Shown: piece by piece, positions 3,156-34,919 of the stretch
Layout of the letters: each line of letters opens with the position of its first letter
How positions within the stretch are numbered: position 1 is the first letter of the stretch
Assembly: GCA_964367145.1 (NCBI GenBank)
Contig: CAYIWJ010000001.1
Span: 1-54,967 of the forward strand
Direction of reading: 5' to 3'
DNA length: 54,967 nucleotides
From: an uncultured Candidatus Saccharibacteria bacterium
Lineage (GTDB): Bacteria > Patescibacteriota > Minisyncoccia > UBA6257 > 1-14-0-10-40-38
The notes under the pieces: model-generated
The model's input: only the letters and a program-made list of their open reading frames with translations
What the model was told of the DNA's origin: nothing
The model's database searches: none
Made by a program: the position numbers and the translations under genes

Positions 3156-3175
3156 AGAAGAACTCGACACTAATC

Positions 3176-3256: not shown

Positions 3257-3273
3257 TTGGTGTTGCTACCTTC

Positions 3274-4989: not shown

Positions 4990-4996
4990 TAACAAT

Positions 4997-6208: not shown

Positions 6209-6212
6209 TAAT

Positions 6213-7797: not shown

Positions 7798-7807
7798 ATA
7801 AAAAAAC

Positions 7808-8248: not shown

Positions 8249-8264
8249 TAAGCAACGACCAATT

Positions 8265-16247: not shown

Positions 16248-16261
16248 AAACGCCACCCCCA

Positions 16262-17308: not shown

Positions 17309-17443
17309 CAAGCTAAAGTATAAAACATATAAAACCCACCGGCAACGTGAGATCTTTTCTAAAAAACGGCCAAGACATCAAGCGCAAACCGCTGTCGCCA
17401 TCACAACTACAACGAGCTAGAAGTTGATTTTGTTAGCACTAAT

Positions 17444-17923: not shown

Positions 17924-17983
17924 ATAATTTGATTATAGTAGATAATAAAAAGTCCGCAAGGCATCAAATCCGCGATTGATGTT

Positions 17984-18934: not shown

Positions 18935-20082
18935 AAAATTCCTTTTTTAATCCGCTCTCTTAGCGTAGCGACGAACTGGTTAAAGTAAAAAAGATTGTGT
19001 TGAGTTAAAAGAACGAGGCCGGTAATCTCTCGCGCTCGAATCAAGTGGGAGATATAAGTTCTCCGATATCCCAAACACGTTGGGCATTGGCATCGAGGGT
19101 CAAGCGCTTTTTGATCGTTCAAAAAAATTGCCGAGGCCAGGTTTAAACGACCGGCGCTCGTAAAAGCGATACCGCGTCGCGCATAATGCGTTGGAATCGT
19201 GCAGTCAAAAGTATCAATACCGGCGGCGATAATACGCGGTATGTCTTCAAGCGAGCCGATGCCCAAAAGATGTCTTGGCTTCGCCTCGTCTAACAGTGGC
19301 AGAGTCCAGTCCAGAATTTTTTGCATTGAATTCTTACTGCTTCCCAAATCGCCGCCGATACCAAAGCCATCAAAACCAAGTCGGTTAATCAGGCGAGCGC
19401 TTAACTCTCTAAGCGGCTTAAACCGTGATCCTTGTACAATACCGAACAAAGCCTGTTTACCAGTTCGCGAATTAAGTGACGTCTGCGCCCAACGATGGGT
19501 GCGAGCGAGAGAGGCTTCGATGTAAGCCCGAGTGGCGGTCGGCGGAGTACATTCGTCAAAAGCAAACATAATATCAGCACCAAGTTTTTCCTGGATAGCA
19601 ATTGATTCTCGCGGCCCGATAAAGATTTCTCTTCCGTCAATCGGCGACTTAAAGAAAACACCAGTCTCTAGAATTTTAATTGAGTTCGGTTGGCGACCTT
19701 CGGCGACTTTCAGGTTAGCGCTTGGTCGTCCATCAAAATATTTTAATATCTTACCGACATTCAAATCACGTCCGAAGCCAAGACTAAAAATTTGAAACCC
19801 GCCGGAATCGGTCATGATTGGCCGCCGCCAGTTCATGAATTTATGCAAGCCCCGACTTTTAGCCACTACCGCTTCACCGGGTTTTAAATGAAGATGAAAG
19901 GTGTTAGCGATAATGACTTGAGTCCCGGTTCCTGCGAGCATCTCGCTGGTTAGGGTTTTCGCGCTCGCCTGGGTCGCGACGGGAACCAAGCTTGGAGTTT
20001 CCACCTCGCCATTTGGCGTGGTTAAGATGCCGAGTCGCGCTCGACTAACGCCGGAACGCTGAATTATTTTGAAGGAAATCAT
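18931..20082 (-). CDS. tgt: tRNA-guanine transglycosylase (queuine/preQ1 tRNA-ribosyltransferase)
   Basis: MTDSGGFQ, LFGIVQGS, zinc site CQCPTC...H. 383 aa. Confidence 0.95.
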   Translation of the reverse strand: MISFKIIQRSGVSRARLGILTTPNGEVETPSLVPVATQASAKTLTSEMLAGTGTQVIIANTFHLHLKPGEAVVAKSRGLHKFMNWRRPIMTDSGGFQIFSLGFGRDLNVGKILKYFDGRPSANLKVAEGRQPNSIKILETGVFFKSPIDGREIFIGPRESIAIQEKLGADIMFAFDECTPPTATRAYIEASLARTHRWAQTSLNSRTGKQALFGIVQGSRFKPLRELSARLINRLGFDGFGIGGDLGSSKNSMQKILDWTLPLLDEAKPRHLLGIGSLEDIPRIIAAGIDTFDCTIPTHYARRGIAFTSAGRLNLASAIFLNDQKALDPRCQCPTCLGYRRTYISHLIRAREITGLVLLTQHNLFYFNQFVATLRERIKKGIL

Positions 20083-20121
20083 AGGATAATAAAAGATGCT
20101 TACTTGCTACAAGGGGATTAA

Positions 20122-20156
20122 CAAAAAAAGCCCACGTTGGGTATAACCCAAGTGGA
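20122..20156 (-). terminator. rho-independent terminator downstream of the 83-aa ORF
   Basis: 9-bp stem with one bulge (20132-20141 / 20147-20155). On the minus strand it is followed by a run of 7 T (A-run 20123-20129 on plus). Confidence 0.7.
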
Positions 20157-20175
20157 CTTTTTTCGCAAATAAATC

Positions 20176-20427
20176 CTACAAAGTCTTGAGGGCGTCATCA
20201 ACCTCTTTTAAGTCGGCTTCGATATCAGGAAGAATTTGCTCGGCGTCTTGAGAGAGTCTCTCCGGCGCGTCATCTTCTGAAGCTACTACCGCCGATTGAT
20301 CTTGAGTTGTGAGAGCCGGTTCTTGATTGTAGTCAGAACTTCGTCCCGCGTAAAAGAAAATCAATCCCAAAGCCACAACCACCACCAAAGCCCCCACGAT
20401 AATTCCTCGTTGCGATTTTTGTTCCAT
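20176..20427 (-). CDS. small N-terminally anchored acidic protein, unknown function
   Basis: 83 aa. One TM (GIIVGALVVVVALGLIFFYA) followed by an acidic tail. Confidence 0.55.
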   Translation of the reverse strand: MEQKSQRGIIVGALVVVVALGLIFFYAGRSSDYNQEPALTTQDQSAVVASEDDAPERLSQDAEQILPDIEADLKEVDDALKTL

Positions 20428-20445
20428 AGTTGATATTTGGAGAAA

Positions 20446-21180
20446 CTAATTAATGGGAGCCGGTTGAGCTGGGTTCTCATTAGGAACCGTCTCCGCGATG
20501 GCCTTTACTAAATTGCGAACCGCTTCACGCGCCGCAAGCACCGACTGATGAACAACCATCAAATCTTTGCGCAATCCGCTAATCGCGGCCCCCAGTTGTT
20601 TTTTCGCGGTTGATTCGATGAAAGTAGTATCGTAAACCTTGGCTGATTGAGCATCAATAGCTCGATTCGCCGCTTCCACTTCTTGAGTCGCTTTTTCGCG
20701 AAGAGTCTTTAACGAGGCAACATTCACCCCAGCCCCATCAATTTTAGCAATTCTGGAATCGGCTCGCTCCAAAAGTTTTTGCAGATTTTCAGTTACCGCC
20801 ACAAATCGCTTCAGCAAGTTCTGGTTGATTTTATTCAAGTTTTCCACGATCTTCAGGCTTTTATCGGCCTTCGACTTGTCCTTAAAATTTTCCATTCGGC
20901 CACGATTCATTTCAAGCTTCTTATCAATCAACTCTTGAGTTTTGACCATCTTGCCTTCGCGCTCTCTGCGCATCATCATCAGCTTATCCTCACTGGCGGC
21001 CATCTTGGCCTTTCTCTCCATTATATCGGAAACAGAGTCAGCTTTTCTTGCCTCCAAAGCCGCTCGTTTCAATACTGGTCCATCTACATTCTTAACCTCT
21101 TCGGCTTGGGCAGAACCGGTCATTGCCACGACAGAAAACAGGGCAACAGCCACCAAAAAAGCATTTTTCTTAGTCATCAT
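20446..21180 (-). CDS. secreted alpha-helical/coiled-coil protein, unknown function
   Basis: Signal peptide ...VAMTGSAQA/EE. The remaining ~215 aa are rich in K/E/A/L heptad-like sequence. Confidence 0.6.
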   Translation of the reverse strand: MMTKKNAFLVAVALFSVVAMTGSAQAEEVKNVDGPVLKRAALEARKADSVSDIMERKAKMAASEDKLMMMRREREGKMVKTQELIDKKLEMNRGRMENFKDKSKADKSLKIVENLNKINQNLLKRFVAVTENLQKLLERADSRIAKIDGAGVNVASLKTLREKATQEVEAANRAIDAQSAKVYDTTFIESTAKKQLGAAISGLRKDLMVVHQSVLAAREAVRNLVKAIAETVPNENPAQPAPIN

Positions 21181-21269
21181 ATGTTTGTAATTGAACTGTT
21201 AAATTAACGGCCCGACGCGTGCATTATGGCACACCACGGGGAAAAACACCAGACACAGAGTAAACGAAG

Positions 21270-21494
21270 TTAGACCGGAAGCCGTTTCTTGCGGTATTCA
21301 AGCCACCAAGGCCAAAGGAAGATATAGAGAATTTCCAAAACACCTATTGTGTTCAGCAACAACAAAGCCACAAACCAAAGCTTGCTTCCGGCGCGAGCCG
21401 CCTTCCATAAGGCGACCCCCTTCCAGGAGATCGTCCACAAGACAGCCACGGCAAAAGCGATTTCTTTATTGGTCAAGGGAATGGGACTAATCAA
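21270..21494 (-). CDS. small integral membrane protein
   Basis: 74 aa with 2-3 hydrophobic segments and a W/K-rich loop (WKGVALWKAARAGSKLWF). Confidence 0.5.
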   Translation of the reverse strand: MISPIPLTNKEIAFAVAVLWTISWKGVALWKAARAGSKLWFVALLLLNTIGVLEILYIFLWPWWLEYRKKRLPV

Positions 21495-21509
21495 AATGGG
21501 TAACCCGAC

Positions 21510-22133
21510 TTAAAGAGCCATAAAAGACACCATCATCGGTAAACCTTTAGCATCCAAGAGTGGTGGGTTTTTCTTGGTGTCAAAAATACGATTCTCGGCC
21601 GCGACATGCAACATGGCGGTATAGCGTCTTCCGGCTACCGTCTCGCGCAACAATTCAACCATACCCGAATAAACGCCAAGATCAAAAAGTTTTGCCCCCA
21701 AAATCCTGCCGACCGTCGCGTCGACATTCATTTCGTGAATCACAACCCAGGTTGGAGCAACTAGCGTTCCGGCAACTTGAACCTTGCTTCCGGCTGTTTG
21801 ATCTTTGGCTGTAACCGTTACCCCGCCGTCCTTGGCCATCATTTGACCATCATCTTTTTTGGTCAAAACCGAAGATTCTATGTTGGCCTGGCTATTGGTT
21901 GTTTTTTCCTCGATTCCTTTGGTCGCGACATTTAGGTCCTTATCCACCCCCTCGGTTTCAATGCCTTGCGCTGTCGCGTCCAAATCGTTCTGTGCTACCA
22001 AGCTATCGCTTTGCGGCCCAAGACCCTTGCCCAAAAAGAAACCAATTAAACCAGCAAGCAATGCGATAACTAATGTCGACCAAATTGAACGACCTTCCGA
22101 CTGTCCCGCGCCCTGTTGATTGTTTGTATCCAT
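21510..22133 (-). CDS. N-terminally anchored extracytoplasmic protein, unknown function
   Basis: 207 aa. TM (IWSTLVIALLAGLIGFFLG), a low-complexity linker, then a ~100-aa beta-looking C-terminal domain. Confidence 0.55.
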   Translation of the reverse strand: MDTNNQQGAGQSEGRSIWSTLVIALLAGLIGFFLGKGLGPQSDSLVAQNDLDATAQGIETEGVDKDLNVATKGIEEKTTNSQANIESSVLTKKDDGQMMAKDGGVTVTAKDQTAGSKVQVAGTLVAPTWVVIHEMNVDATVGRILGAKLFDLGVYSGMVELLRETVAGRRYTAMLHVAAENRIFDTKKNPPLLDAKGLPMMVSFMAL

Positions 22134-22254
22134 ACGACTTGTAAATTTAAAATTAGTTTATAAAAAGCACGCCATCGGTGCCAAGAACTGCCCCAATTAT
22201 AAAGTTCAGAAAATAAAAAAGCAATCGTTGAATCCTCAAGGCTTCGCGTGCCGA

Positions 22255-22617
22255 TTATTCAGGGCGCCGCGACAAAATAAATAAAGCTCCAGCGGCCAAG
22301 GCTAGAGCTAAATCGCGGAAAACAATATCCAGCAAGAGCAGGTTGGGTGCTACGATTCCCACCAGGGTTAGTGTCGCCATTAAAGCCGCCCAACGTGATG
22401 TTCTGGGATAAAGTAGAGCTCCGCCAAGTATCAATTCATAGATCGAAAAAATAGCGAGTAAAAGATTTTGCGGAACCAAAGCCCTCATAAATAAAGGAAA
22501 ATAGCCAATCCATGAATTCGGGTCGGTAAAGGAAGCAATCGCGGCATAGAAAAAAACACCGGCTAAGGCAATGCGCAACAACCAGATTGCCAAGACTAAG
22601 CGTTTTTTTTCGGGCAT
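22255..22617 (-). CDS. DoxX-like 4-TM membrane protein
   Basis: 120 aa with four hydrophobic segments. LLRIALAGVFFYA start typical of DoxX-type proteins. Weak call. Confidence 0.45.
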   Translation of the reverse strand: MPEKKRLVLAIWLLRIALAGVFFYAAIASFTDPNSWIGYFPLFMRALVPQNLLLAIFSIYELILGGALLYPRTSRWAALMATLTLVGIVAPNLLLLDIVFRDLALALAAGALFILSRRPE

Positions 22618-22625
22618 ATTAAGAA

Positions 22626-23099
22626 CTATCGCACAATAACTATACCGCCACGACTCGGATTAAGGTGGTCATGATATTTCCAAGTCCCCGGAGTTGTAAA
22701 AGTAAAGGTGTAGCTTTCGCCCGTGCCAAAACCCCTATCCGCGTCAAACTCTTTCAAGGTTGTATGGGCCGGATGTGGATTGGAAGCCACCCACATCTTA
22801 TCCTCCGTCTGATTGGTAAAGGCAATCGGCGTTCCTAGTGGAACAGTGATCGTCTCGGGCTTAAAGCCATCTTTAGTATAGGACACGGCTTTAATTTCCG
22901 ACGCGCCCGAAGTCGTATCCAAATTTTTGATCGTTTCCTCGGTGGGCGTCACCGGAACTTGCGGATTAACATCTTCTGCTTCTGGAGACGGTTGGTTATC
23001 GGTTTGAGCCCTCCTCCGCACCGAGCCCCCGGCAAAAAAAGAGGTCACGGTAGATATTGCCACAATCGCCACTACAAAAATCGTAAAAAATTTTTTCAT
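22626..23099 (-). CDS. anchored/secreted cupredoxin-like domain protein (no Cys copper ligand)
   Basis: 157 aa. N-terminal TM or signal peptide. C-terminal VPLGTPIAFTN......GESYTFTFTTPGTWKYHDHLNP..GGIVIV resembles EfeO-type cupredoxin-like domains. No Cys is present in the domain. Confidence 0.45.
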   Translation of the reverse strand: MKKFFTIFVVAIVAISTVTSFFAGGSVRRRAQTDNQPSPEAEDVNPQVPVTPTEETIKNLDTTSGASEIKAVSYTKDGFKPETITVPLGTPIAFTNQTEDKMWVASNPHPAHTTLKEFDADRGFGTGESYTFTFTTPGTWKYHDHLNPSRGGIVIVR

Positions 23100-23162
23100 A
23101 TTAAAAAAGTTTATAAACCTTTACTCATCCTATGCCGGAGCAAAAAATAGTCAATCAAATAG

Positions 23163-24941
23163 CTAGCTTCGCCCACGATAAGTGGCGTCCTCATCTTCGG
23201 TGGCAAGCATCAAACGCTTCTTTCTCATTAACGCATGGGAACGAAAAGCGAAGAAAGAGCCGACTCCCAAGCCGATCAAGGTTAAGCTTCCATAGTAAGG
23301 TAAGCCACGGCGCAAGCGATCCCAAATCAAAGACTTTACAATTGTCACTCGAATCGGCGCCTGTAATTTTTCCCAAGTTCCTTTATTGCGATAATAGGCG
23401 ATTAGGTAATAATTTCCCGGAGAAAATCCGTCAAGCCGAACTTCGCCATTTCCTTTTTTGACTATAATCTGCCGCGCCAAGCGAAAATTTTCGTCAAAAA
23501 CATCAACTCGATACTCCTCCGCGGAGTCGGGAATGGCCATTTCCAAAAAAGAAATAATAATACTTCCAGTTCCACTAAAACCGGCTGTCGCTACGTTAAC
23601 GACGACTGGTGAAGTCGTGGCGCCAGTCGACGGATTAACTGCGTTTTGGTTGGAATTTTCTGGCGGCGGTGTAGCGCCCGGTGGAGGAGGTGGCGCGACC
23701 TCTGGTGGTGGCGTCAAATTTGGTGGCGGGGGAGTTGTTGGTGAAGACGAGGCCGTAAGCGTCGTAAATATTAAAGTTGAGGAGGCCGCGTTTCCTTGTG
23801 GATCAGTGGTGAGCAAAGTTGCTGTGTAGGTGGTTGCTGGAGTCATGCCATAAACGCTAACCGAGTGCTCCAATTCATAAGTCGGGTCAAAGGCGTTGGC
23901 GCTAAAAACACCGGCGCGGGAAACCGTAACCCAAGAGTTAGCGGCTTCATTGGTTGTCCAGATAAAACCCGCGCTTACGGCGCTAAGATTGTTAATCATA
24001 GCTCCAATAATTTGTGGTGGAGCAACATCTCCCGATGGTGGTGGAGGAGGTGGCGGCGGAGGAGGAGGTAATCCCGTGCCGGGTGGCGGAGGCGGTGTGA
24101 TTATAGAAAAATCTTGTGGTGTCAAAAACGAACCAGTAGTTGAAGCCTGGTTTCCCCAAGAGTCATAGGCCGTCAGGATAAAATTATAGTTTACGCCCGG
24201 TAAAGTAGTTAGAGTCAGACCGCAATTTATAATTCCCATGGGACAGGTCGCGTAAGAACCGTAGGGGCCGGCAACTTGCGGTGTTTGTCCGGCTGGACCA
24301 TAAGCCACTTCAAAATCAACCGGCTCGTTGGCATTAAAATATAAAGCGGTGGCATAAGGCGAAAACGGCGAAGTTGTAGCATTGGTAATTAAAGGCGGGG
24401 CAGTTTCCGCGGTCTCATAAAGTGCAAACTTAAAACTAAATGGTTGTTCTATGGCACCCAAATAAGCGGTACCCAAAAGATATTCGGGATAGGCTTGAGA
24501 ATTGTGGGGCAGAATCTGAAAACGGTTTACGTGGTGCAACCATAGCTCCGATGGAAAACTCAAAACTTTGATCTTGTAAGTCGCTCCCGGATTGATTGGA
24601 ATGAGTGAGGAAAAATCGGCATGCAAACGAGTCCCGCCCCACACCGGAGGAGTCGTTGGAACGGTAATCGTTACCGCCGCAAGCTGAACGTCGTTGGCGT
24701 TATAGAGTCCAAAAGTTGCCCCTCCCGCCTCGCCAAGATTATCAATCCAAAAATCAAAACCGCGTAAAAAATCATTATATACCGGAAACTCTTGCGCCGA
24801 AGTGTCATACGCCGCCACTTTAAGTCGCTCGTCATAATTTTCCGGCGCGAACTCAAAAAAACGAGTTCCGTGCGCCAAACTTTGGGCGGGAAAAAGCATC
24901 AACCCAAGCATTAAAAAAAGAAGACTTACAAAAAACCTCAT
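23163..24941 (-). CDS. large secreted, C-terminally anchored surface protein with FN3-like modules and poly-proline linkers
   Basis: Signal peptide ...FPAQSLA/HG. Two or three FN3-like beta modules. 11 consecutive Pro codons (24036-24068) and a second P-rich linker. C-terminal TM (SLTLIGLGVGSFFAF) followed by a basic tail. Confidence 0.75.
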   Translation of the reverse strand: MRFFVSLLFLMLGLMLFPAQSLAHGTRFFEFAPENYDERLKVAAYDTSAQEFPVYNDFLRGFDFWIDNLGEAGGATFGLYNANDVQLAAVTITVPTTPPVWGGTRLHADFSSLIPINPGATYKIKVLSFPSELWLHHVNRFQILPHNSQAYPEYLLGTAYLGAIEQPFSFKFALYETAETAPPLITNATTSPFSPYATALYFNANEPVDFEVAYGPAGQTPQVAGPYGSYATCPMGIINCGLTLTTLPGVNYNFILTAYDSWGNQASTTGSFLTPQDFSIITPPPPPGTGLPPPPPPPPPPPSGDVAPPQIIGAMINNLSAVSAGFIWTTNEAANSWVTVSRAGVFSANAFDPTYELEHSVSVYGMTPATTYTATLLTTDPQGNAASSTLIFTTLTASSSPTTPPPPNLTPPPEVAPPPPPGATPPPENSNQNAVNPSTGATTSPVVVNVATAGFSGTGSIIISFLEMAIPDSAEEYRVDVFDENFRLARQIIVKKGNGEVRLDGFSPGNYYLIAYYRNKGTWEKLQAPIRVTIVKSLIWDRLRRGLPYYGSLTLIGLGVGSFFAFRSHALMRKKRLMLATEDEDATYRGRS

Positions 24942-24993
24942 TTGTCTTTCAGTATATCATTCGCCGAGCCGAAGCACCGTACACAGGCCATCT

Positions 24994-25221
24994 TTAATCC
25001 AGGCCAAAAATCTCTACCAGCTTCCGGCGCGAAGCGTGTCCCGAAAGAATTTGAATCTGACTCGGGGCGATTTTAAAATGCATGGCCAGGGCTCGAATAA
25101 TGCCCATATTCGCCTGACCCTTAACCGGCGGCTCGGTAACCCAAACGCCAAACGTGTTCGGCTCTATCTCCATAACTCTGACTTCCCGTGCCGATGGATG
25201 TGCCTGAACTAAAATCTTCAT
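24994..25221 (-). CDS. DUF167 (YggU-like) protein
   Basis: 75 aa. V.A.P.A......E..........V...PP.KG.AN..I...LA..F...........G..SR.K.VEI pattern. Confidence 0.75.
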   Translation of the reverse strand: MKILVQAHPSAREVRVMEIEPNTFGVWVTEPPVKGQANMGIIRALAMHFKIAPSQIQILSGHASRRKLVEIFGLD

Positions 25222-25224
25222 AAT

Positions 25225-26445
25225 TTATTGCAAAGACTTTGCCGCCCGAAGTTTTCGGTGGTAGCCGATGGCAAAACGGTGCGCCTCATCACGAACTCTA
25301 ATTAGCACCTGGCCCAAGTCTGTCGACGGCTTCATCCCAATAAACTCATTCTTGTCTCGACGCGGACCTTTGGCAATGCCAACTATGGGAATATGTAGCC
25401 CGACCTCATTTAATACGCTCTTCGCAATGTTGACTTGAGGAGTACCGCCATCAATTAAAATTAAATCCGGCAAAGTCCACTTGGTCTCAAAGCGCCGAGC
25501 AAGAACCTCACGCAACATGCCCGTGTCATCTGGCGTAGTTAGACTTTGAATCCGAAATTTTCGATACTCATTTTTGTCCGGTTGGCCGCGTCTAAAAACC
25601 ACCATGGATCCAGTAGCCGAAGTACCGGAGGTGTTAGAAATGTCATAACCCTCAATTCGTTGGGGCATGGTGGAAGTTGCTGGTGGAATCAACGGATCTT
25701 CGGAGAGTACCGCCACATCGCGAATGTGTTGCAGAGCAAAAATCCGGCGCTTTATTATTTCCGCCTTCTCATAATCAAGTTTTCTACTGGCCACAAGCAT
25801 CTCTCTTTCGCTTTGTTTGATTAGAAAAGCTTTCTTGCCCTCAAAAAAACGGCAGATATTTTTAATCGTCAGCAGATACTCGGCGTGGCTTATTAAACCG
25901 GCGCATGTTCCCGGACACAGGCCAATCTCATAATCAAAACAAGGGTGGGGCCGATTCATTGATTTCCGCCGAGCCAAATCTTCGGAGGTGTGAGTGGAAT
26001 ATGGAAAGATTCGCCGGACGATTTTAAGCGCCTCGCGAACGCTGGTCGCCGAGGTGAATGGCCCAAAACGCCGCCGCGGTGTCCCGCCGGTACCTCGCAC
26101 TAAAATTATCCGCGGCCAAGCCTCTTTGGTAATTTCCACATATAAAAAACTTTTATCGTCCTTTTCTCGAATGTTGAACGGGGGACGATAAAGTTTAATC
26201 AAAACCGCCTCGCGGATCAGGGCTTCAATCGCAGTCTCGGTTTTTTCGTGATCAATCTTCGCAACATTTTGAACGAGACTTTCAATGCGAAGATCATGCG
26301 CGCGGCTAAAATAACTGGCGACTCGTCGCCTTAGATTGACCGCCTTGCCCACGTAAAGTATCTCGCCGCGCCGCCCGCGCATAATATAAACCCCGGGCGT
26401 TTCCGGAAAAGACTGTATTTTTTTAAGGATAGCTTCCTTTGCCAT
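25225..26445 (-). CDS. uvrC: excinuclease ABC subunit C, short form
   Basis: GIY-YIG (PGVYIMRGRRGEILYVGKAVNLRRRV), Cys-rich CFDYEIGLCPGTC, UVR-like helix, C-terminal endonuclease domain (RIEGYDISNTSG, PDLILIDGG, DEAHRFAI). 406 aa and ends before any (HhH)2 domain. Confidence 0.9.
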   Translation of the reverse strand: MAKEAILKKIQSFPETPGVYIMRGRRGEILYVGKAVNLRRRVASYFSRAHDLRIESLVQNVAKIDHEKTETAIEALIREAVLIKLYRPPFNIREKDDKSFLYVEITKEAWPRIILVRGTGGTPRRRFGPFTSATSVREALKIVRRIFPYSTHTSEDLARRKSMNRPHPCFDYEIGLCPGTCAGLISHAEYLLTIKNICRFFEGKKAFLIKQSEREMLVASRKLDYEKAEIIKRRIFALQHIRDVAVLSEDPLIPPATSTMPQRIEGYDISNTSGTSATGSMVVFRRGQPDKNEYRKFRIQSLTTPDDTGMLREVLARRFETKWTLPDLILIDGGTPQVNIAKSVLNEVGLHIPIVGIAKGPRRDKNEFIGMKPSTDLGQVLIRVRDEAHRFAIGYHRKLRAAKSLQ

Positions 26446-26518
26446 ATTGGTTAGCTAATCGTAAATCCAAAACGCGAACTGACTAGATTAATAAAGAATT
26501 GCCGACACCAAAAGATGG

Positions 26519-27247
26519 TTACAGCAACTCGTAAAGCGCCTTAAAGAATTTCTTTTGGAGCTGGGCAAACATTGCGTTCTCGATAATAAATCCGTTATTA
26601 GCTTCAAAGTCAGTAACCGCTACCTTGTCCCCATAAATTACCTGGGTGATTTTATCATTGATAAAATCATATTTAGTGGGAATGATTTTAACCGCCAGTG
26701 TTAGATCGGATTTTTTCTGAAAATCGGCAAGTTCGTCAGTGATTACAAATCTTTCTATCTGTTTTGTTAATCTCCCCCTGTGAAAACTTTTTGGCAAATA
26801 TTTGTTAGTAATGATCGAAGCGCGCTTCGTGGTATATACATAATAAGCATCACCGCGTTTCAGGGTGGCTAAAAGATCTGAAGCGACAAAAGCCAGACCG
26901 CGACGACCTTCCAAAAATTTGATCAAGGGTTTATTTTTCTTGGCTGCATATGTTTCCTGTAAGTCGCCAAGTAGTTTCTCAAAGTTTTTATTATAATAAT
27001 CAAACAGCGAGCGGAGTTTTTCTGGGTTTTCAGCCACATATCGGTTCTGTTTTCCACCTGAAGCGACAACTGAAACCAATCCTCGAGCCTGCAGTATCGG
27101 CAAAGCGCGGTAAACGGTGGGGCGATGCATTCCGGTGTGGTGAGCGATATGCGAAATCAATAAAGGCCCGCGTCCCAAAAGGGTTAAATAGATGCGAGAT
27201 TCATCGCGACTAAAGCCAAGATTTTGAATAACTTCTCGTGCTTTCAT
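26519..27247 (-). CDS. TrmB-family transcriptional regulator
   Basis: N-terminal winged HTH LGFSRDESRIYLTLLGRGPLLISHIAHHTGMHRPTVYRALPILQARGLV plus a ~150-aa C-terminal domain. Transcribed divergently from the cassette at 27469. Confidence 0.85.
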   Translation of the reverse strand: MKAREVIQNLGFSRDESRIYLTLLGRGPLLISHIAHHTGMHRPTVYRALPILQARGLVSVVASGGKQNRYVAENPEKLRSLFDYYNKNFEKLLGDLQETYAAKKNKPLIKFLEGRRGLAFVASDLLATLKRGDAYYVYTTKRASIITNKYLPKSFHRGRLTKQIERFVITDELADFQKKSDLTLAVKIIPTKYDFINDKITQVIYGDKVAVTDFEANNGFIIENAMFAQLQKKFFKALYELL

Positions 27248-27276
27248 GTATATATGTAATTATTTAATACACTATT

Positions 27277-27294
27277 TATAGCCAATATATAGCC
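27277..27294. promoter_or_regulatory. direct repeat TATAGCC-N4-TATAGCC (11-bp phasing) upstream of the TrmB-type gene
   Basis: TATAGCC at 27277-27283 and 27288-27294, 30-47 nt upstream of the regulator start (27247, minus strand). Confidence 0.4.
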
Positions 27295-27352
27295 GTAAAA
27301 TAAGGACTTCCTGCTTATCAGCCAACACCAGTTACAAAGAAGTGTAGTCCTA

Positions 27353-27370
27353 ATTGACATAAATGTCAAT
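27353..27370. promoter_or_regulatory. 18-bp perfect palindrome ATTGACAT-AA-ATGTCAAT (candidate operator)
   Basis: The 8-bp arms are exact reverse complements. It contains a TTGACA hexamer and lies in the 221-bp divergent intergenic region. Confidence 0.6.
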
Positions 27371-27468
27371 CCTAGATTAACCTAAAGTCGTGTACTGGAT
27401 GTTCCAGCGCACTTTCAGAACTTTGACAACTGAATTCCGGCAGTCGGAATTTAGAGGAGGTAGCTAGC

Positions 27469-28284
27469 ATGAAGATGCTGATCTGTGTGATCGTCGCGCT
27501 CGCGACGGTCGGCGTTTCCGCTTCTGCCCAGCAGGGCAAGAAAAAGCCGGCTCCCAAGAAAGACGTGGGGATCGAAGTTCCTCAGTCGAAGCCCGCCGAG
27601 GCGCTCGCTCCGATGGTGGACGATCAAGACCTGCGTCAGAAGACGGAGCAGTTCGAGAAGCTCATGGAGCCGTTCGAAAAGAACGGCACGGACATTCAGA
27701 AGGAACTCAACACCTTCCTCGATGAACGCAACAAGGCCGGAAGCATTGAGAACCTCACGCCCATGAGGATTTCCGAGCTCCAGATCCAACTGGGTCGGAT
27801 CGCCAAGAAGGCGCGTGAACAGATGACCTCCTTCGTCGAGAAGAAGAGGGAATTTGGTGATCTTCTCGTTGGATACGAGCGCAATAGCCAAGTTAGCGAG
27901 GTGAACGCGACTCGTGATCTCGAAGATGCCAAAAAGCTTCGCGCGCGCATCGAGGGCGATACCCTGATCAAGGACGACCCTGCTCAGCAGGCACTGCTTG
28001 CGGCGGTTGATGCGAACCTGTTCTCCCACAACGCGAGAATTCAATCCATTCGGACTTGGAATTCGGTGCGGGGATCGGTGAAAGAGCGCTCGGAAAAGCT
28101 TTTCGCGGTCGCGGGATACTGCGTGGAGATTCTCTCCGATTGCGAGAAGATTCTTCTTGAACCTTCAAACGTCGGTACCGCGCTCGCGCGACTCGAGGCT
28201 CACGTGTCCAATCTTCAGGCGTTCACCTTCAAGCTCGCCGAAGAGACGAAACGGATCGCCGGTTCGCTCGTGCCCAAGACTTGA
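27469..28284 (+). CDS. secreted alpha-helical protein P1, unknown function
   Basis: SD GAGGAGG (27454-27460), 8 nt upstream of the ATG. Signal peptide MKMLICVIVALATVGVSASA/QQ. 271 aa, K/E/L-rich. G/C-ending codon preference. Confidence 0.8.
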   Translation: MKMLICVIVALATVGVSASAQQGKKKPAPKKDVGIEVPQSKPAEALAPMVDDQDLRQKTEQFEKLMEPFEKNGTDIQKELNTFLDERNKAGSIENLTPMRISELQIQLGRIAKKAREQMTSFVEKKREFGDLLVGYERNSQVSEVNATRDLEDAKKLRARIEGDTLIKDDPAQQALLAAVDANLFSHNARIQSIRTWNSVRGSVKERSEKLFAVAGYCVEILSDCEKILLEPSNVGTALARLEAHVSNLQAFTFKLAEETKRIAGSLVPKT

Positions 28285-28313
28285 ATCACGCTTGCGCGTC
28301 GAGCAAGGCTCTC

Positions 28314-28343
28314 AACCCCAGCTCGTTGGAGCTGGGGTTTTCT
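28314..28343 (+). terminator. rho-independent terminator after P1
   Basis: ACCCCAGCTC (28315-28324) pairs with GAGCTGGGGT (28329-28338) around a GTTG loop, followed by TTTT. Confidence 0.75.
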
Positions 28344-28368
28344 ATAACCTCACCAAGGGAGAAGATGT

Positions 28369-28845
28369 ATGTTGTCTAAACGACTTGGTTGGCGCCAGAT
28401 TACTCTGGTTGGAATCTATCTTCTTGTTTCGGCGCTCGTTTCATGTGTTGATCCTGATAGAGTACCTCGTTTTAGGGAAAATTGGTCTGGGAAATGGGCT
28501 GGGGAGATAAGGGAAGTTGCTGACAGAACCACTCAAGAGTTTACTCTTGTCTTGGCGCTAGAAAAAGATCAGGTAAGTGGCTCCATGAGAGATGCAGATG
28601 GTTCGTTGGCCAACATTGCTGGATATATCAAGTTCATCGACAAGGAAAAAGTACCGTGGAAAAAGAAGTATGAGCTTGAGTTTATAAAAGATTACGGCAA
28701 TGGCATCAAGGTCAAATGGATCTCTAGCGGGATTGGTAGGGATGATTGTTGTATCGAGATTAATGGAACTTGGTGCAGAGAAGATGGTGAGGGAAGTGAG
28801 AAAACTATTGCGATGGGCACCTGGCGAATGTGGCCAGTAAAATAG
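28369..28845 (+). CDS. putative lipoprotein P2 with WSGKW/DxDGS/GxWRMW domain
   Basis: SD AAGGGAGA (28355-28362), 6 nt spacing. Lipobox LVS/C. 158 aa. Paralogue of P3 and of the P4 C-terminal half. Confidence 0.8.
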   Translation: MLSKRLGWRQITLVGIYLLVSALVSCVDPDRVPRFRENWSGKWAGEIREVADRTTQEFTLVLALEKDQVSGSMRDADGSLANIAGYIKFIDKEKVPWKKKYELEFIKDYGNGIKVKWISSGIGRDDCCIEINGTWCREDGEGSEKTIAMGTWRMWPVK

Positions 28846-28912
28846 CCACGATTCATTTTAGCCGATCATTTTTATCGCTCAATTTCCCTAGTCTTACCAA
28901 AGGGGGCGAAGA

Positions 28913-29485
28913 ATGAGACTCAATCAACCCAGTGTTTTCAAGATATTCTTTGGTATTCTTATTTTCTCGACGATGACCGCTTGTGACGGTACGGAAGATA
29001 AACACGAACTGGCTGAAGTCGCTGACAACAATAACGACAAGCCCGCTTCTTCTCCGGCAACCACCTTGAGTTCTAACACTGAAAGCGGTTGGTCTGGGAA
29101 ATGGGGCGGGGTGATGGAGGATGAAGTTAACCCCGATGGCATAATGAAGATTCAGGAATTTATTCTCCACTTGGACATAAAGGGCAGTAACGTAACTGGT
29201 TTCATGGAAGATCAGGACGGCTCACGGGCCGATGTATCCGGAAAGATTATATTTGTCGGTAAAGATCCTTTCGAACTAAGATTTGTAAAAGATTACCGCA
29301 ACGGCACAACCTTGTCTTGGTTTGCCGAAATCAGCAATTCAAATTTTAGTTCGTCGGGTCATGGTTACATCTTCGGCCATTGGCGTCGCGAAGAAGACAA
29401 AGAAAATGACATCAGTGCGGGAACTGGTGGTTGGTCAATGCGGTCTATCGATGATACTACCTTCCGGAATCACCAAAGGAGGTGA
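28913..29485 (+). CDS. putative lipoprotein P3 with WSGKW/DxDGS domain
   Basis: SD AAGGGGG (28900-28906), 6 nt spacing. Lipobox-like MTA/C. An S/T/N/P linker is followed by the paralogous domain. 190 aa. Confidence 0.8.
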   Translation: MRLNQPSVFKIFFGILIFSTMTACDGTEDKHELAEVADNNNDKPASSPATTLSSNTESGWSGKWGGVMEDEVNPDGIMKIQEFILHLDIKGSNVTGFMEDQDGSRADVSGKIIFVGKDPFELRFVKDYRNGTTLSWFAEISNSNFSSSGHGYIFGHWRREEDKENDISAGTGGWSMRSIDDTTFRNHQRR

Positions 29486-29488
29486 AAG

Positions 29489-30340
29489 ATGATGTTCTAC
29501 AGAATCAACTTCTCTCGGAACGTTTCGTTTGTGCTCTTCGTCTTCTTCGCCGCCGCAAATGTGTCAGCGCAGGAGGCGTCCATCAAGGACAAGCTTTCAG
29601 CCGCGAAGGAGGCAACGGTTCGCAAGTGCATCGAGCTTCGGGAGATGGCTAAAGAGGCCTATAACAAGGTCTTGAATGCCGCCGAAACCAAGTATCAAGA
29701 AATTGACCGATGGGTCAACGAGCGCGGCGGTTGGGAAAAGCTTTCGGGCCAGACCCTCCAGGATGTTAGGAAACAACTTGGCGTCGTCGCGAAAGAATCA
29801 ATCGAAAAGACGCGCGAAGTGACCGATGGTATTTTGGCAAAGGCGCAGAAGGATGCTCTCGAACTTGGCCCAGCCGCGCTCCTCGCAGTTGGAACCCCGC
29901 CCCAGAGCGAAAACCTGGATTTTAGACTCAATGATTCTGGCTGGTCCGGAAAGTGGGTTGGTTATTGGGACGATGCCACTACCTCCACCATGCAATGGTT
30001 CCACCTCATAATCAACGTCAACAAAGATTGCTCGGTCAGCGGGGTTATGAAGGATGCCGATGGCTCATTGGCAAATGTTTCGGGAAGCATCAAGTGGGTT
30101 GAGTGCACGCTAAAGGACCAATTTGGATTTCCCACTGGAGACGGCAAGTTTTGGGAAATCCAACTCCTGAAGAAATACCCCGAGAGCGGAGTCGAGGTAC
30201 GTTGGTCAGCTCAGCTGTCTCAAGACCGCAAGAGTTACCGCTTCCCAGAGATCATCAAGGGAACGTGGTGTCGAGTTGAAAAAGTGGATGCCGGCATCGT
30301 TCCAGACATGGGAGTCTGGCGAATGTGGCCCGTAAAGTAA
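29489..30340 (+). CDS. secreted protein P4: helical N-terminal module plus WSGKW/DxDGS/GxWRMW domain
   Basis: SD AAGGAGG (29476-29482), 6 nt spacing, overlapping the end of P3. Signal peptide ...FFAAANVSA/QE. 283 aa. The C-terminus GVWRMWPVK matches the P2 ending GTWRMWPVK at 8 of 9 residues. Confidence 0.82.
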   Translation: MMFYRINFSRNVSFVLFVFFAAANVSAQEASIKDKLSAAKEATVRKCIELREMAKEAYNKVLNAAETKYQEIDRWVNERGGWEKLSGQTLQDVRKQLGVVAKESIEKTREVTDGILAKAQKDALELGPAALLAVGTPPQSENLDFRLNDSGWSGKWVGYWDDATTSTMQWFHLIINVNKDCSVSGVMKDADGSLANVSGSIKWVECTLKDQFGFPTGDGKFWEIQLLKKYPESGVEVRWSAQLSQDRKSYRFPEIIKGTWCRVEKVDAGIVPDMGVWRMWPVK

Positions 30341-30354
30341 GTAGACAAGCAATC

Positions 30355-30387
30355 TGCCCCGCTATTTAGATAGCAGGGCATTTTTTT
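30355..30387 (+). terminator. rho-independent terminator closing the P2-P4 operon
   Basis: TGCCC.GCTAT / ATAGC.GGGCA stem (30355-30380) with a TTAG loop, followed by 7 T. uvrA ends convergently at 30397. Confidence 0.8.
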
Positions 30388-30396
30388 ATTCAAGAA

Positions 30397-32922
30397 TCAG
30401 ACCACCTTTCGCAGATATTCGCCCGTATAACTTCCTTTTTTGCGGGCAATCTCTTCTGGTGTGCCGGTCGCCACTATCGTTCCACCCTTGTTGCCCCCCT
30501 CGGGGCCTAGGTCAATCACCCAGTCGGCGGTTTTGATCACGTCCAAGTTGTGCTCAATCACCACAATCGTATTGCCGCGATCCACTAAACGCTGAAGTAC
30601 AATCAACAGATTTTCAATATCAGCAAAATGAAGCCCCGTTGTTGGCTCATCTAAAAGATAAAGCGTCTTGCGGGTATCGCGTTTGCCTAGCTCCGCCGAA
30701 AGTTTAATTCTTTGTGCCTCGCCCCCCGAAAGCGTCGTTGCCGATTGCCCCAACTCCAAATAACCCAATCCAACCTCGTTGAGAATTTTAAGCCGATCCT
30801 CCAGCCAGGGAATGTCGGCAAAGAAAGGCAGTGCTTCTTCCACCGTCATCCGCAAAACGTCATAGATATTTTTTCCCTTATATTCCACCGCTAAAGTTTC
30901 CCGATCAAATCTCTTGCCCTTGCATACGTCGCAAACCACATAGACCGTCGGCAAAAAGTGCATTTCAATCGCAATCGTGCCGTGTCCCTCGCAATGCTCA
31001 CATCGCCCGCCCGGCACGTTAAAACTAAACCGTCCTAGCTTATACCCTCGCACTCGCGCGTCTTCGGTGGAGCTGAATAGTTCGCGGATAAAAGTCCAGG
31101 CGCCGACATAAGTCGCCGGATTGGATCGTGGCGTCCTCCCGATGGGCGACTGATCAATGTTGATCACGCGGTTAATATATTCCAAGCCCGAAATTGACTT
31201 CACCGTGCCCGCCTTGTAATCCGAAAAATTAAATTTATTGGAGGCGGTTTTATAAAGCACGTCATAGACGAGCGTACTCTTGCCCGAACCGGAAACCCCG
31301 GTTACAGCCGTCAATCGCCGCAGGGGAATATCCACGTTTATTCCCCTTAGATTGTTTTCGGTCGCCCCGCGGATTTTTATATGCTCATGGTCTTTCTTAA
31401 TCTGTCGTCTCTTCTCCGGCACCGCGACTTTTTTGGTGCCGTTCAAAAAATCTATTGTCAGCGAACGGGGCATATTTTTCCCCGTGGTTTTATTGAGAAT
31501 CTGCGGAATCGGACCGGCCGCCACAATCTGGCCACCATGAATTCCGGCGCCAGGGCCAACGTCAACCAGATAATCGGAAGCGCGGATGGTTTCTTCGTCG
31601 TGTTCCACCACCAGCACCGTGTTTCCAAGATCGCGAAGTTCGTGCAGGGTTTTAATCAGTTTGGCGTTGTCCCGCTGATGCAAACCAATCGTCGGCTCAT
31701 CTAAAATATAAAGTGTCCCAACCAGCCGTGAACCAATCTGCGAAGCCAGCCTGATTCGCTGTGATTCACCGCCCGAGAGCGTCCCCGAGGCGCGTCCGAG
31801 TGTAAGATATTCAAAACCGACATTCATCAAAAACGCCAATCGGTTTTTGATTTCCTTGAGCGGCGCCTCGAGTACTCCGCCCAAGTTTTTATTTTCCAAA
31901 GTTAGTCCGCTAAAGAACTTCACCGCTTCTTCAATGGAAAAAGCGGTTATCGCCGCGATGCTTTTGTTTTTTATCAGAATATTTAGACTCTCGCGCTTCA
32001 AGCGGTTGCCGTTGCACGCCGGACAAACTTTTTCCGACCAAGCCTCTTCGGTGCCCAAACCATGACACTGTGCGCAAGCTCCAAAAGGACTGTTAAAAGA
32101 AAAAAGCCGCGGCTCAATTTCGGGAAAAGAAAATCCGTCTCGCGGGCAAGTGAACTTGGCCGACAAAGAAACCTCTCGGCCGTCATGAACGATTGTTACT
32201 ACATCGTTGCCGTACTTGAGCGCGCTCTCCACTGCTTCTGCCAAGCGAAGTCTATTTTCTGCCGTCTTAAAATCCAAAAGCGAGGGAATTCGATCCACCA
32301 CCAGATCAATCGTGTGCGTCTTATAGCGCGATAGCTCTATCCGGTTTCTCAAGGAGCTCATCACGCCATCAATTCTCGCCTCGCCAAATCCGGCGTTCAA
32401 AAAATCATAAAGCATCTGATAATATTCTCCCTTGCGTCCGCGCACCACTGGCGCGAATATCAGCAAGTTTTTGTCCGATCCACGATTCTCAATCAACTGC
32501 AGAACTGTATCCACGATTTCTTCTTTGGTTAGTTTGCGAATTTCCTGTCCACACTCCGGACAAAATGGAGTTCCGAGTCGAGCGAATAAAACCCGCAGAT
32601 AATCATAGATTTCGGTGATGGTCGCGACGGTGGAGCGGGGATTGCCCGATCGACTTTTCTGGTCAATGGAAATAGCCGGAGAAAGACCTTCAATTTCGTC
32701 CACATCCGGCTTGTCCAGTTTATCCAAAAATTGGCGGGCGTAAGCCGAGAGCGATTCCATGTATCGGCGCTGGCCCTCGGCAAAAATGGTATCAAACGCC
32801 AAGGATGATTTTCCGGAACCGGACAGTCCGGTAAAAACCACCATCTTGTCGCGCGGAATTTCTAAACTGATATTTTTCAGATTGTGTTCGCGCGCGCCTT
32901 TGATTTTAATTTTATCGTGCAT
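30397..32922 (-). CDS. uvrA: excinuclease ABC subunit A (841 aa, apparently without the insertion domain)
   Basis: Two ABC modules (Walker [10 protein letters not shown] and GVSGSGKST; LSGGE signature twice). Zinc modules present. Only 9 residues separate [10 protein letters not shown] from CPACNGNRL. Confidence 0.95.
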
Positions 32923-32933
32923 ATTTTGGTAAA

Positions 32934-34919
32934 TTACTTTTTAGATTTTTTCTCCAGTGCCTTAATCTCGTCTCTTAATAAGGCGGCCAGTTCAAAATCA
33001 AGTTCATCGGCGGCCTTACGCATTTCTCTCTGCTTTTCGCGCAAGAGAGCCTGCAAGCCGGAGCGTGATTTTGGAACCGGCGCCAACTCCAGATTTAAAA
33101 TCTTCTCCGCGGGCAAAATATCTCTAATTTCCTTAATAATAGTCGTTGGAGTAATGCCGTGTTCGGCATTATACGCCAACTGCAATTTACGTCGCCGATT
33201 GGTCTCTTTAACCGCGCGTTCAATTGATCCGGTCATCTGATCGGCGTAAAGCAAGACCTCACCGCGCACGTTGCGCGCCGCTCGTCCGATGGTTTGAATC
33301 AAAGAAGTCTCGCTCCGCAAAAAACCCTCTTTATCCGCATCCAAAATTGCCACCAGCGATACTTCCGGCAAGTCCAAGCCTTCTCGCAAAAGGTTCACGC
33401 CGATTAAAACATCAAACATACCCCTGCGCAGATTGGTCAAGATTCGAATTCTGTCCAGGGTTTTGACATCGCTATGAAGATAATTAACCTTCATGCCAAG
33501 TCCCTCCAAGTGCGCGCTCAAATCCTCCGCCATTCGCTTGGTAAGCGTCGTTACCAAAACTCGCTCTTTTTTATCCACCCTCTCTTTGAGTCGTGGCACC
33601 AAGTCATGCACTTGTCCGGTAGCCGGCAGGATGGTAATTATCGGATCCACCAATCCGGTCGGCCGAATAATTTGCTCCACGATGGCGGAGCTGATATTTT
33701 TTTCGTAATTAGCCGGAGTAGCCGAGACATAAATCACCTGGCCGATTCTGGCGTTAAACTCCTCGGCGGTTAGAGGGCGATTATCAGCGGCCGATGGCAG
33801 ACGAAACCCGTATTCAATCAAAGTCTTTTTGCGGGCGGCGTCTCCGGCGTACATACCGCCGATTTGCGGAACCGTCACGTGTGATTCGTCAATCACCGTC
33901 AAAAAGTCTTCAGGAAAATAATCCAAAAGAGTTTCCGGCGGCGCGCCGGCTTCACGGCCGGAAAGATGACGAGAATAATTTTCAATCCCGTGGCAGTAGC
34001 CGATTTCTTCCATCATCGCCAAGTCAAACTTAGTGCGCCGCTCCAGACGTTCCGCCTCTAATAGTTTTCCGTTCTTCTCAAAATACGCGAGCTGACCTTG
34101 AAGCTCGCGTCGAATATCGGCCACGGCGCGGGTTCGAGCCGCTTTGGTGGTGATAAAATGCTTGGCCGGCGCAATTAAAACATGGGGGACTGTCGGAGTC
34201 TGCTCCGGAACAAAACCCTGCACCGGATCAACTTCATAAAGCGCCACGATTTTTTTTGATTCGGAATTTCCATCAATCGCCCCCAACTCAAAGCGATAAA
34301 TAATTTCCCGATCCGGCGGCATGATTTCCCAATTGTCGCCTCGCACTCTAAAAGTCCCGCGGCGCAAATCGGCGTTCGTGCGGGTAAAGTGGAGCGCCAC
34401 CAACTTACGCATCAACTCACTTCGCCGAATAATCGTTCCGGCCTTAAAATCAAAAATGTTTTCGCGGTATTCTTCCGGAGCTCCCAAACCATAAATACAA
34501 GAAACCGAAGCCACTACAATCACGTCCCGCCGCGTCAGCAAGGCGGCGGTTGCCGCGTGGCGCAACTTGTCGATTTCTTCATTAATTAAGGCCTCCTTAT
34601 CTATATAGGTATCGCTGGACGGCATATAAGCCTCTGGCTGGTAGTAATCATAATAAGAAACAAAATAATGCACCGCGTTTTGCGGAAATAATTCGCGAAA
34701 CTCGTTGCACAGTTGCGCGGCAAGCGTTTTGTTGTGCGCGATGACCAAAGTTGGACGATTGAGGTTGGCTATCACGTTGGCGACGGTGAAAGTTTTGCCC
34801 GAGCCGGTTACGCCGAGCAAAGTTTGTCGCTCCATTTTTTCTTCAACGCCACGAGTTAAAGCCGCGATGGCTTGCGGCTGGTCTCCGGCTGGAATATTTT
34901 GCGAAACCAATTTGAACAT
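32934..34919 (-). CDS. uvrB: excinuclease ABC subunit B
   Basis: GDQPQAI, Walker A GVTGSGKT, DESH box, helicase C motifs, C-terminal UVR domain (ELDFELAALLRDEI). Start placed at MFKLVSQ (34919). Confidence 0.96.
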   Translation of the reverse strand: MFKLVSQNIPAGDQPQAIAALTRGVEEKMERQTLLGVTGSGKTFTVANVIANLNRPTLVIAHNKTLAAQLCNEFRELFPQNAVHYFVSYYDYYQPEAYMPSSDTYIDKEALINEEIDKLRHAATAALLTRRDVIVVASVSCIYGLGAPEEYRENIFDFKAGTIIRRSELMRKLVALHFTRTNADLRRGTFRVRGDNWEIMPPDREIIYRFELGAIDGNSESKKIVALYEVDPVQGFVPEQTPTVPHVLIAPAKHFITTKAARTRAVADIRRELQGQLAYFEKNGKLLEAERLERRTKFDLAMMEEIGYCHGIENYSRHLSGREAGAPPETLLDYFPEDFLTVIDESHVTVPQIGGMYAGDAARKKTLIEYGFRLPSAADNRPLTAEEFNARIGQVIYVSATPANYEKNISSAIVEQIIRPTGLVDPIITILPATGQVHDLVPRLKERVDKKERVLVTTLTKRMAEDLSAHLEGLGMKVNYLHSDVKTLDRIRILTNLRRGMFDVLIGVNLLREGLDLPEVSLVAILDADKEGFLRSETSLIQTIGRAARNVRGEVLLYADQMTGSIERAVKETNRRRKLQLAYNAEHGITPTTIIKEIRDILPAEKILNLELAPVPKSRSGLQALLREKQREMRKAADELDFELAALLRDEIKALEKKSKK

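Follow-up and report, generated by a model that had tools for sequence, protein, structure and literature searches.

A stretch of 54,967 nt from contig CAYIWJ010000001.1, called the window below, carries four plus-strand genes between uvrC and uvrA, next to a divergently oriented gene for a TrmB-family regulator. The host is an ultra-small, Harrisonbacteria-like member of the Paceibacteria from groundwater, represented by a metagenome-assembled genome. Identical contigs were recovered from the 0.1-μm filter fraction of Hainich groundwater well H43, and the sequences of the four-gene cassette are identical in three independent Hainich assemblies. The Hainich 0.1-μm fraction is dominated by Paceibacteria with minimal metabolism (PMC8672522). 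An earlier note on this DNA had described the four genes as a cassette for exported proteins and lipoproteins with a triplicated domain, and open reading frames (ORFs) are indeed found at 27469–30340 as it claimed, with gaps of 67 nt between the second and third genes and 3 nt between the third and fourth (Table 1). We refer to the four proteins as P1 to P4 in gene order, and to their recurring parts as the helical unit (H) and the barrel domain (B).

Table 1. Features of the island between uvrC and uvrA, in window positions
Feature	Position	Strand	Basis
Whole island: trmB, four-gene cassette and terminators	26448..30402	.	blastn and ORF comparison with the nearest genome found (L004)
TrmB-family winged-helix regulator, 242 aa	26519..27247	-	PF01978, E 2.2e-12; uvrC-adjacent orthologues
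Divergent intergenic control region	27248..27468	.	palindrome and promoter-like site
P1, 271 aa: signal peptidase I-type signal, Lys/Pro-rich linker, probably helical body	27469..28284	+	ORF, similarity to P4
Intrinsic terminator after P1: 11-bp GC-rich stem, then UUUUCU	28314..28344	+	folding energy
P2, 158 aa: lipobox LVS/C, Cys26; short linker; barrel 28474-28842	28369..28845	+	ORF, paralogy, lipobox
P3, 190 aa: lipobox MTA/C, Cys24; acidic low-complexity tether of ~35 aa; barrel 29081-29452	28913..29485	+	
P4, 283 aa: signal peptidase I-type signal, helical hairpin (about 29570-29866), disordered linker, barrel 29924-30337	29489..30340	+	
Bidirectional terminator common to P4 and convergent uvrA	30355..30387	.	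folding

All four products begin with a predicted export signal of the type assigned to them earlier. The N-termini of P2 (IYLLVSALVSC) and P3 (GILIFSTMTAC) match the lipobox pattern of PROSITE entry PS51257, with a lysine or arginine near the N-terminus and the cysteine inside the first 35 residues, and those of P1 and P4 show the charged start, hydrophobic core and AxA-like cleavage site of the signal peptidase I type. Folding also recovered the terminators previously placed after gene 1 and behind genes 2–4: the P1 hairpin has an energy of −25.9 kcal/mol (z −4.5), and the closing hairpin, shared with uvrA, has −14.4 and −19 kcal/mol in its two directions. No terminator was found on folding between P2 and P3. 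The GGAGG-type Shine-Dalgarno sequence claimed for every gene is clear at P1 and P4 but only partial at P2 (GGGAG) and P3 (GGGGG). Overlapping P1 is an antisense ORF of 197 aa (27451–28044, minus strand). Rather than a gene, it is most likely a by-product of the very high G+C content of P1 at third codon positions (GC3, 0.71).

P2, P3 and the C-terminal half of P4 had been proposed to be paralogues, and BLASTP bears this out (P2 against P4, E 2e-23; P2 against P3, E 3e-18; P3 against P4, E 6e-15). The barrel portion of P4 comprises its C-terminal 138 residues, and 32 columns are invariant across the three barrel copies. P2 and P4 share their C-terminal nonapeptide as described, but the run of identical nucleotides is 15 nt long, not 14. 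The similarity between P1 and the N-terminal half of P4 is weak yet real (BLASTP E 8e-4; Smith-Waterman z 4.3, with none of 500 shuffles scoring as high), and this similarity and weak coiled-coil matches in Pfam suggest that the body of P1 is probably helical. Synonymous sites are saturated between the barrel paralogues, and the triplication is therefore old. The ratio of nonsynonymous to synonymous substitution rates (dN/dS) could be estimated for two pairs and is close to 0.3 in both, so the cassette genes look constrained.

A barrel family with a predicted streptavidin-like fold

By sequence, the barrel matches no known family. The earlier note had been unable to assign it, and the Pfam search proposed there gave no match even at E up to 10. 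Nor was there a match for P1–P4 in Pfam, NCBIfam, PADLOC or PHROGs, a meaningful match among the viral structures of BFVD, or a tblastn match to plasmids and phages. Against PDB sequences, barrel profiles returned only nanobody/VHH noise and the helical-module profile only PE25-type noise. With P4 and P1 as queries, word-indexed searches covering 5.8 billion proteins yielded the query genome's own proteins only, and a HMMER profile of the three barrel copies, run against 1.84 billion representatives, yielded the three self proteins and four repeat-protein false positives. A metagenome search, likewise proposed earlier and run with a four-sequence barrel alignment, brought no new members, only the Hainich H43 contigs again. 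The fourth sequence comes from L084, a distant relative described below; it is present in the 1.84-billion collection and was missed there, scoring 34 bits with the three-copy profile, for which we estimate an E of about 0.4 at that database size. An anti-phage defence system is unsupported.

The combination of AlphaFold and Foldseek that had been suggested as a check was run with AlphaFold2 models of the barrel built on a three-sequence alignment. Modelled alone, the P4 barrel (predicted local distance difference test, pLDDT, 78; predicted template-modelling score, pTM, 0.69) starts with a short helix (residues 2–5), which is followed by eight sequential strands. The model of full mature P4 (pLDDT 63.5) reproduces the barrel, together with a pair of long antiparallel helices and a disordered ~25-residue linker. 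For both models, the top Foldseek matches in the PDB are avidin, streptavidin, rhizavidin and agroavidin, plus de novo designed ligand-binding barrels (probability 1.0, template-modelling score to target 0.5–0.68, E 5e-4 to 7e-2). The domain is predicted to be a Trp/Gly-rich, eight-stranded, up-and-down antiparallel barrel of the streptavidin/calycin type. The early impression of a beta-rich, faintly calycin-like domain agrees with the prediction, and the label "unknown fold" is now superseded; the barrel is a new sequence family of a structural and functional kind that is already known.

In the model, an invariant W-x-G-x-W-x-G opens strand 1, supplying the G-x-W of calycins, and the short N-terminal helix corresponds to the one that closes the barrel in that class. 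Two candidate basic residues for packing from a C-terminal strand on the strand-1 tryptophan, R117 and R133, are each present in three of the four sequences. By strand alternation, the invariant W7, W11, W115 and W132 would face inward, as would M42, I56, F/L26-32 and W94, and so would the invariant glycines found on six strands, which is compatible with barrel kinks. An aromatic-lined interior with glycine kinks fits this modelled arrangement. The DxDGS motif, which had been called invariant and a possible metal or sugar site, is invariant among the three local copies but reads HGEDGK in the L084 homologue, so that only its DG, located between two predicted strands, is conserved in all four sequences. 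The metal- or sugar-site reading is weakened because the motif is not conserved in L084.

Avidin and streptavidin (PF01382; PDB 8asu, 3ew2, 4jnj, 1sws) are the best solved structural matches of the predicted barrel, a likeness confined to the level of the fold; their reference sequences were verified against the PDB. The modelled domain shares with them an eight-stranded up-and-down antiparallel barrel of about 120–135 residues without a C-terminal helix, a G-x-W-type first strand, a Trp-rich interior and secretion. Unlike them, it carries a lipid anchor or is joined to a helical stalk, has no Pfam or PDB sequence match, and reaches a probability of 0.2% when its alignment is compared with avidin plus streptavidin by hhalign. 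The biotin contacts of streptavidin (N23, S27, Y43, S45, W79, W92, W108, D128) have no alignable correspondence in the barrel by hhalign, and strand mapping would place N23, S27 and Y43 at G13, D/E17 and M42. A biotin-binding avidin is improbable: the profile comparison fails, and by strand mapping the biotin-contact positions would not be conserved.

As a small, exported or lipid-anchored, eight-stranded envelope barrel, the modelled domain also resembles bacterial calycin-type lipoproteins such as the lipocalin Blc, YceI and MliC/PliC. Barrels of this type serve in ligand binding or enzyme inhibition. These proteins show no detectable sequence similarity to it and do not occur among the top 50 Foldseek matches, and in contrast to lipocalins the predicted barrel has no C-terminal helix. 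The designed barrels among the top matches (PDB 6d0t, 6ohh, 8ah9) have inward glycine kinks paired with large aromatics, as here; they are artificial, so the likeness is architectural only.

Island boundaries, a second locus and the uvrC-linked regulator

The nearest genome found is that of Candidatus Harrisonbacteria nzgw425 (L004), whose UvrC and UvrA are 84% and 95% identical to those of the window. By blastn, window positions 15295–26447 and 30403–34900 are collinear with L004 at 75–80% identity, and the 3,955 nt between them correspond to a 20-nt uvrA–uvrC spacer in L004, with which the ORF comparison agrees. The module is thus absent at exactly the same site in the closest relative, and because the whole stretch is missing there, trmB belongs to the island and is not a resident neighbour. 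No repeats were found at the island edges, no integrase at the island and no tRNA in the window.

In most of 80 related loci uvrB, uvrA and uvrC are co-oriented, and the gap between uvrA and uvrC varies across relatives, from 19 nt up to 5.8 kb. In 61 relatives this gap contains no homologue of the cassette or of TrmB. The gap mostly holds patatin-like lipases and thymidine kinase, and it is therefore not a general slot for exported proteins. The uvrA–uvrC junction is a variable slot; in many Paceibacteria it encodes a protein of ~290 aa with the patatin-type motif GLALGGGGA(K/R)GLAHIGV, and a thymidine-kinase-like gene often follows on the opposite strand (loci L026, L028, L032, L033, L035, L037, L038, L042, L044, L050, L056 and L069). 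UvrC of the window (25225–26445) is short, with 406 aa containing GIY-YIG, UVR and RNase H-like endonuclease parts and no detected helix-hairpin-helix; the UvrC ORFs of relatives, where read (loci L004–L083), have about 400–440 aa. At 91–1380, L004 encodes a His/Asp/Thr-rich protein of 429 aa in which degenerate (S/T)-D-x-H repeats occupy nearly the whole length and which has no syntenic counterpart in the window.

A second instance of the layout lies in L084, a distant relative with 60% GC and a UvrC 56% identical to that of the window. Here TrmB faces an opposite-strand block of unannotated genes located between TrmB and uvrA. The first gene of the block, at the position of P1, encodes a 251-aa secreted helical protein with weak similarity to P1 (z 3.4), and the second a 415-aa protein with a barrel C-terminus (BLASTP against P4, E 3e-9) that ends in GTWRMWPVK, identical to the end of P2. 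The N-terminal ~225 residues of the 415-aa protein and the 251-aa protein are paralogues (z 10.4), a relationship that parallels the one between P1 and the N-terminal half of P4. The order of units is thus H, lipo-B, lipo-B, H'-B in the window and H, H-B, followed by a weakly H-like 167-aa protein, in L084. Between the two loci the barrel is 26–32% identical, as against 57% for TrmB and 72% for UvrA, and the cassette is therefore evolving at a far higher rate than the genes around it. That the layout recurs at the same site in so distant a genome points to a family that is rare and fast-evolving, and its barrel pattern is retained at the protein level between genomes of 47% and 60% GC.

The trmB gene sits 73 nt upstream of uvrC in the same orientation, and is divergent from P1. 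Like TrmB-family regulators (PF01978), its product has an N-terminal winged-helix domain (residues 8–76). It is a short bacterial form with no Pfam match past residue ~80, the C-terminal sugar-binding domain of archaeal TrmB included, and it scores 24–32 bits with the NCBIfam TrmB equivalog models, whose cut-offs are 500–650. It is syntenic with uvrC and not with sugar transport genes: orthologues with 57–59% identity adjoin uvrC, co-oriented, in three other lineages (L084, L087 and L091–94). The earlier note had proposed looking for relatives that carry uvrC, trmB and uvrA without the cassette, and TrmB–uvrC is indeed present without the barrel in L087 and L091–94, but the gap of the 61 relatives mentioned above holds neither TrmB nor cassette. 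Since it is uvrC-linked in three other lineages, two of which lack the barrel cassette, TrmB is not a dedicated regulator of the cassette.

The arrangement with trmB upstream of and co-oriented with uvrC recurs in four Paceibacteria lineages (window 25225–27247; L084 8001–12651; L087 8001–10599; L091 345–2407), and the gap of 73 nt in the window shrinks to 2 nt in L091. Such spacing suggests a trmB–uvrC transcription unit, and a role of the regulator in the control of excision repair is possible. In L084 a 466-aa Ser/Thr protein kinase is encoded between TrmB and uvrC (8775–10175, minus strand); its PADLOC matches of PD-T4-6 type (E 4e-17) probably reflect a generic kinase domain. The corresponding place in L087 (8792–9307) holds a 171-aa membrane-anchored, beta-rich protein (GYWKVTDY...), which is lipocalin-like by eye and has no detectable relation to the barrel family. 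In the control region of the window, a perfect 16-nt palindrome, TTGACATAAATGTCAA, at 27354–27369 overlaps the −35 hexamer of a promoter-like trmB site and is a candidate operator. No Rfam riboswitch was found upstream of P1 or P2.

The earlier note had further described the module as foreign-looking and acquired. Its G+C counts (39 of 60 nt near the start of P1 against 22 of 60 in the regulator gene) are exact, and its statement that P1 and P4 prefer G/C-ending codons holds, as their GC3 values of 0.71 (z +4.0) and 0.63 (z +2.5) are the top two among the 52 ORFs of the window, over which all z-scores and ranks of GC3 were computed. In the same ranking P2 and P3 do not stand out and trmB comes last, and the island is compositionally mosaic, with a bulk GC of 0.48–0.50 against ~0.47 across the window. 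One explanation is that the island arrived recently, by horizontal transfer from a donor richer in G+C, and has not long been resident in the lineage. The outlying GC3 values speak for a transfer of P1 and P4 at least, and the mosaic composition, the clean intergenic junction at which L004 lacks the island, and the 60% GC of the only other genome with the family point in the same direction. However, no flanking repeat, integrase, tRNA, plasmid or phage match accompanies the island, the GC3 of P2, P3 and trmB is host-like or lower, and loss in L004 explains the pattern equally well. The TrmB–uvrC synteny across four lineages, in which TrmB identity (57–59%) tracks UvrC identity (47–56%), the saturated synonymous sites of the paralogues and the absence of any sign of mobility all favour age. 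What stands of the claim, then, is the outlying composition of P1 and P4 and the absence from L004; against it stand the missing marks of mobility, the saturated paralogues and the layout in the distant L084. An old, fast-evolving and often-lost module fits these comparisons at least as well, and we regard recent acquisition as possible but doubtful. No marks of a mobile element were found, be it an integrase, a repeat, a tRNA, or a plasmid, phage or PHROGs match. Elsewhere in the window, at 48990–49559, there is a phage Mu Gam-like protein (PF07352, E 4.5e-29) with the third-highest GC3 (0.589), which may be a mobile-element remnant.

Among the Hainich population variants, 4 single-nucleotide polymorphisms (SNPs) fall within the cassette. 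A second Hainich contig, L090 (H43, replicate 2, ~3x coverage), differs from the window by 23 SNPs, of which 14, most of them synonymous, lie inside 121 nt (window 23394–23514). This dense patch resembles a short recombination tract and is located inside the gene for a 592-aa Pro-rich surface protein (23163–24941), which combines poly-Pro linkers with an FN3/Ig-like stretch and shows 76% identity to its L004 counterpart. L090 tracks the window to codon 20 of P4 and then diverges into unrelated sequence (L090 9067–9388, compared with window 29548 onward) with no match in the window or in loci L001–L083. Either the assembly is chimeric at the GAAGAAGAC repeat or the contig stems from a strain without P4.

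Possible functions of the cassette

An extracytoplasmic binding function is most likely. The form of it that we favour, with a probability of roughly 35%, is a surface-displayed module whose barrels would capture a ligand. The barrels of P2 and P3 would be tethered by their N-terminal lipid anchors to the outer face of the cytoplasmic membrane, P4 would display a third barrel on a helical-hairpin stalk, and P1, a secreted paralogue of that stalk, would probably assemble with it into a helical bundle. In such an arrangement the helical parts would form an oligomerising stalk and the barrel would be the binding unit, holding its ligand in an aromatic-lined pocket; the ligand, scavenged by a metabolically reduced cell, would most likely be either a glycan or a small molecule of hydrophobic or aromatic nature. 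Expression would be driven from the divergent trmB/P1 promoter region. The export signals and lipoboxes, the ~35-residue tether of P3, and the stalk and disordered linker of P4 count in favour of display and anchoring. The predicted fold, the constraint on the genes, the recurrence of the layout in L084 and the minimal metabolism of the Paceibacteria that dominate the source fraction also speak for this reading.

Several observations weigh against ligand capture. The Foldseek E-values are weak, the root-mean-square deviations are 4–6 Å and the models derive from three sequences. The pocket is deduced from strand alternation in these models, and the invariant Trp and Gly residues could be purely structural, filling the core so that no pocket is left. 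Nutrient-binding proteins are usually well conserved, and this barrel family is so divergent that the profile search of 1.84 billion proteins recovered no member beyond the query copies, which fits surface recognition better. Neither Lgt nor LspA was found among the scanned ORFs of the 55-kb window. As to control, the palindrome is not shared upstream of orthologous trmB genes, and no conserved TrmB operator was found there. The description of the cassette as regulator-linked is weakened, as the constant neighbour of TrmB is uvrC.

The same extracytoplasmic proteins might instead recognise a partner or host, as variable surface proteins that contact a cell, a phage or a surface by binding protein or glycan, for instance as the adhesin or antigen set of an episymbiont. 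The extreme divergence of the barrel relative to TrmB and UvrA, its lineage-restricted distribution and its multiplication into local paralogues are all in keeping with such a role, for which the stalk-plus-head architecture of P4 would be suited, and the surroundings are rich in surface machinery, with type IV pilus genes, the 592-aa Pro-rich protein and a 699-aa Ig-domain protein. On the other hand, the four proteins contain no adhesin-type repeats and no known adhesion domain, dN/dS in the two estimable pairs lies near 0.3 and not above 1, and the Hainich population variants differ by just 4 SNPs in the cassette; small eight-stranded barrels of the calycin/avidin class, moreover, more often bind small ligands. 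We place small-ligand capture slightly ahead of recognition, which we consider a tentative alternative. The type IV pilus cluster (window 1001–9776) encodes two prepilin-type proteins, a PilB-like ATPase and a PilC-like platform protein, and the 699-aa surface protein (41034–43133) has He_PIG/Big_9 Ig domains; both fit a cell-attachment lifestyle.

A more specialised version of binding seems unlikely. Here the barrel would belong to an unrecognised branch of avidin-like or calycin-like high-affinity receptors, which ultra-small symbiotic Paceibacteria would carry on a helical stalk and on lipid tethers in order to seize a vitamin, a cofactor or a lipid from the environment or a host, or to recognise the surface of a host, with the helical pair of P1 and P4 as a new two-part receptor scaffold. 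Still less likely, in our view, is envelope defence, whereby lipid-anchored barrels would inhibit the hydrolases of a competitor or host in the manner of MliC/PliC or APRin/Omp19-type proteins. Those inhibitors share the small eight-stranded barrel architecture, the streptavidin-like fold class predicted here (SCOP fold b.61) also includes beta-barrel protease inhibitors, and tandem paralogue arrays, such as these membrane-anchored small barrels form, are typical of inhibitor and immunity genes. Yet no such inhibitor family appears in the top 50 Foldseek matches or in Pfam at E up to 10. Genes for toxins or effectors are missing from the vicinity, PADLOC has no match, and inhibition leaves the helical modules of P1 and P4 without a role. 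That the cassette consists of chance ORFs or decaying genes is very improbable: the family is known from two organisms only, but the genes come with ribosome-binding sites, export signals and terminators, are conserved at the protein level across paralogues and across genomes of differing GC, show a dN/dS of about 0.3 in the two estimable pairs, and recur unchanged in three independent Hainich assemblies.

Candidate Phyla Radiation bacteria rely on other cells for most of their building blocks, and to our knowledge their surface proteins for nutrient capture or partner contact are almost wholly unannotated. The locus described here introduces a new family of barrels, predicted to fold like streptavidin, in a layout that recurs at a fixed chromosomal site: a helical protein, a helical-plus-barrel fusion and TrmB. 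It also offers a concrete expressible target, mature P2, of ~130 residues. Should the barrel prove to lack a ligand pocket, what remains is another set of lineage-specific envelope proteins. The only other barrel member was reached by the synteny of an orthologous regulator, after a search of 1.84 billion proteins had failed, and many of the "orphans" in such genomes may accordingly be fast-evolving families and not new inventions.

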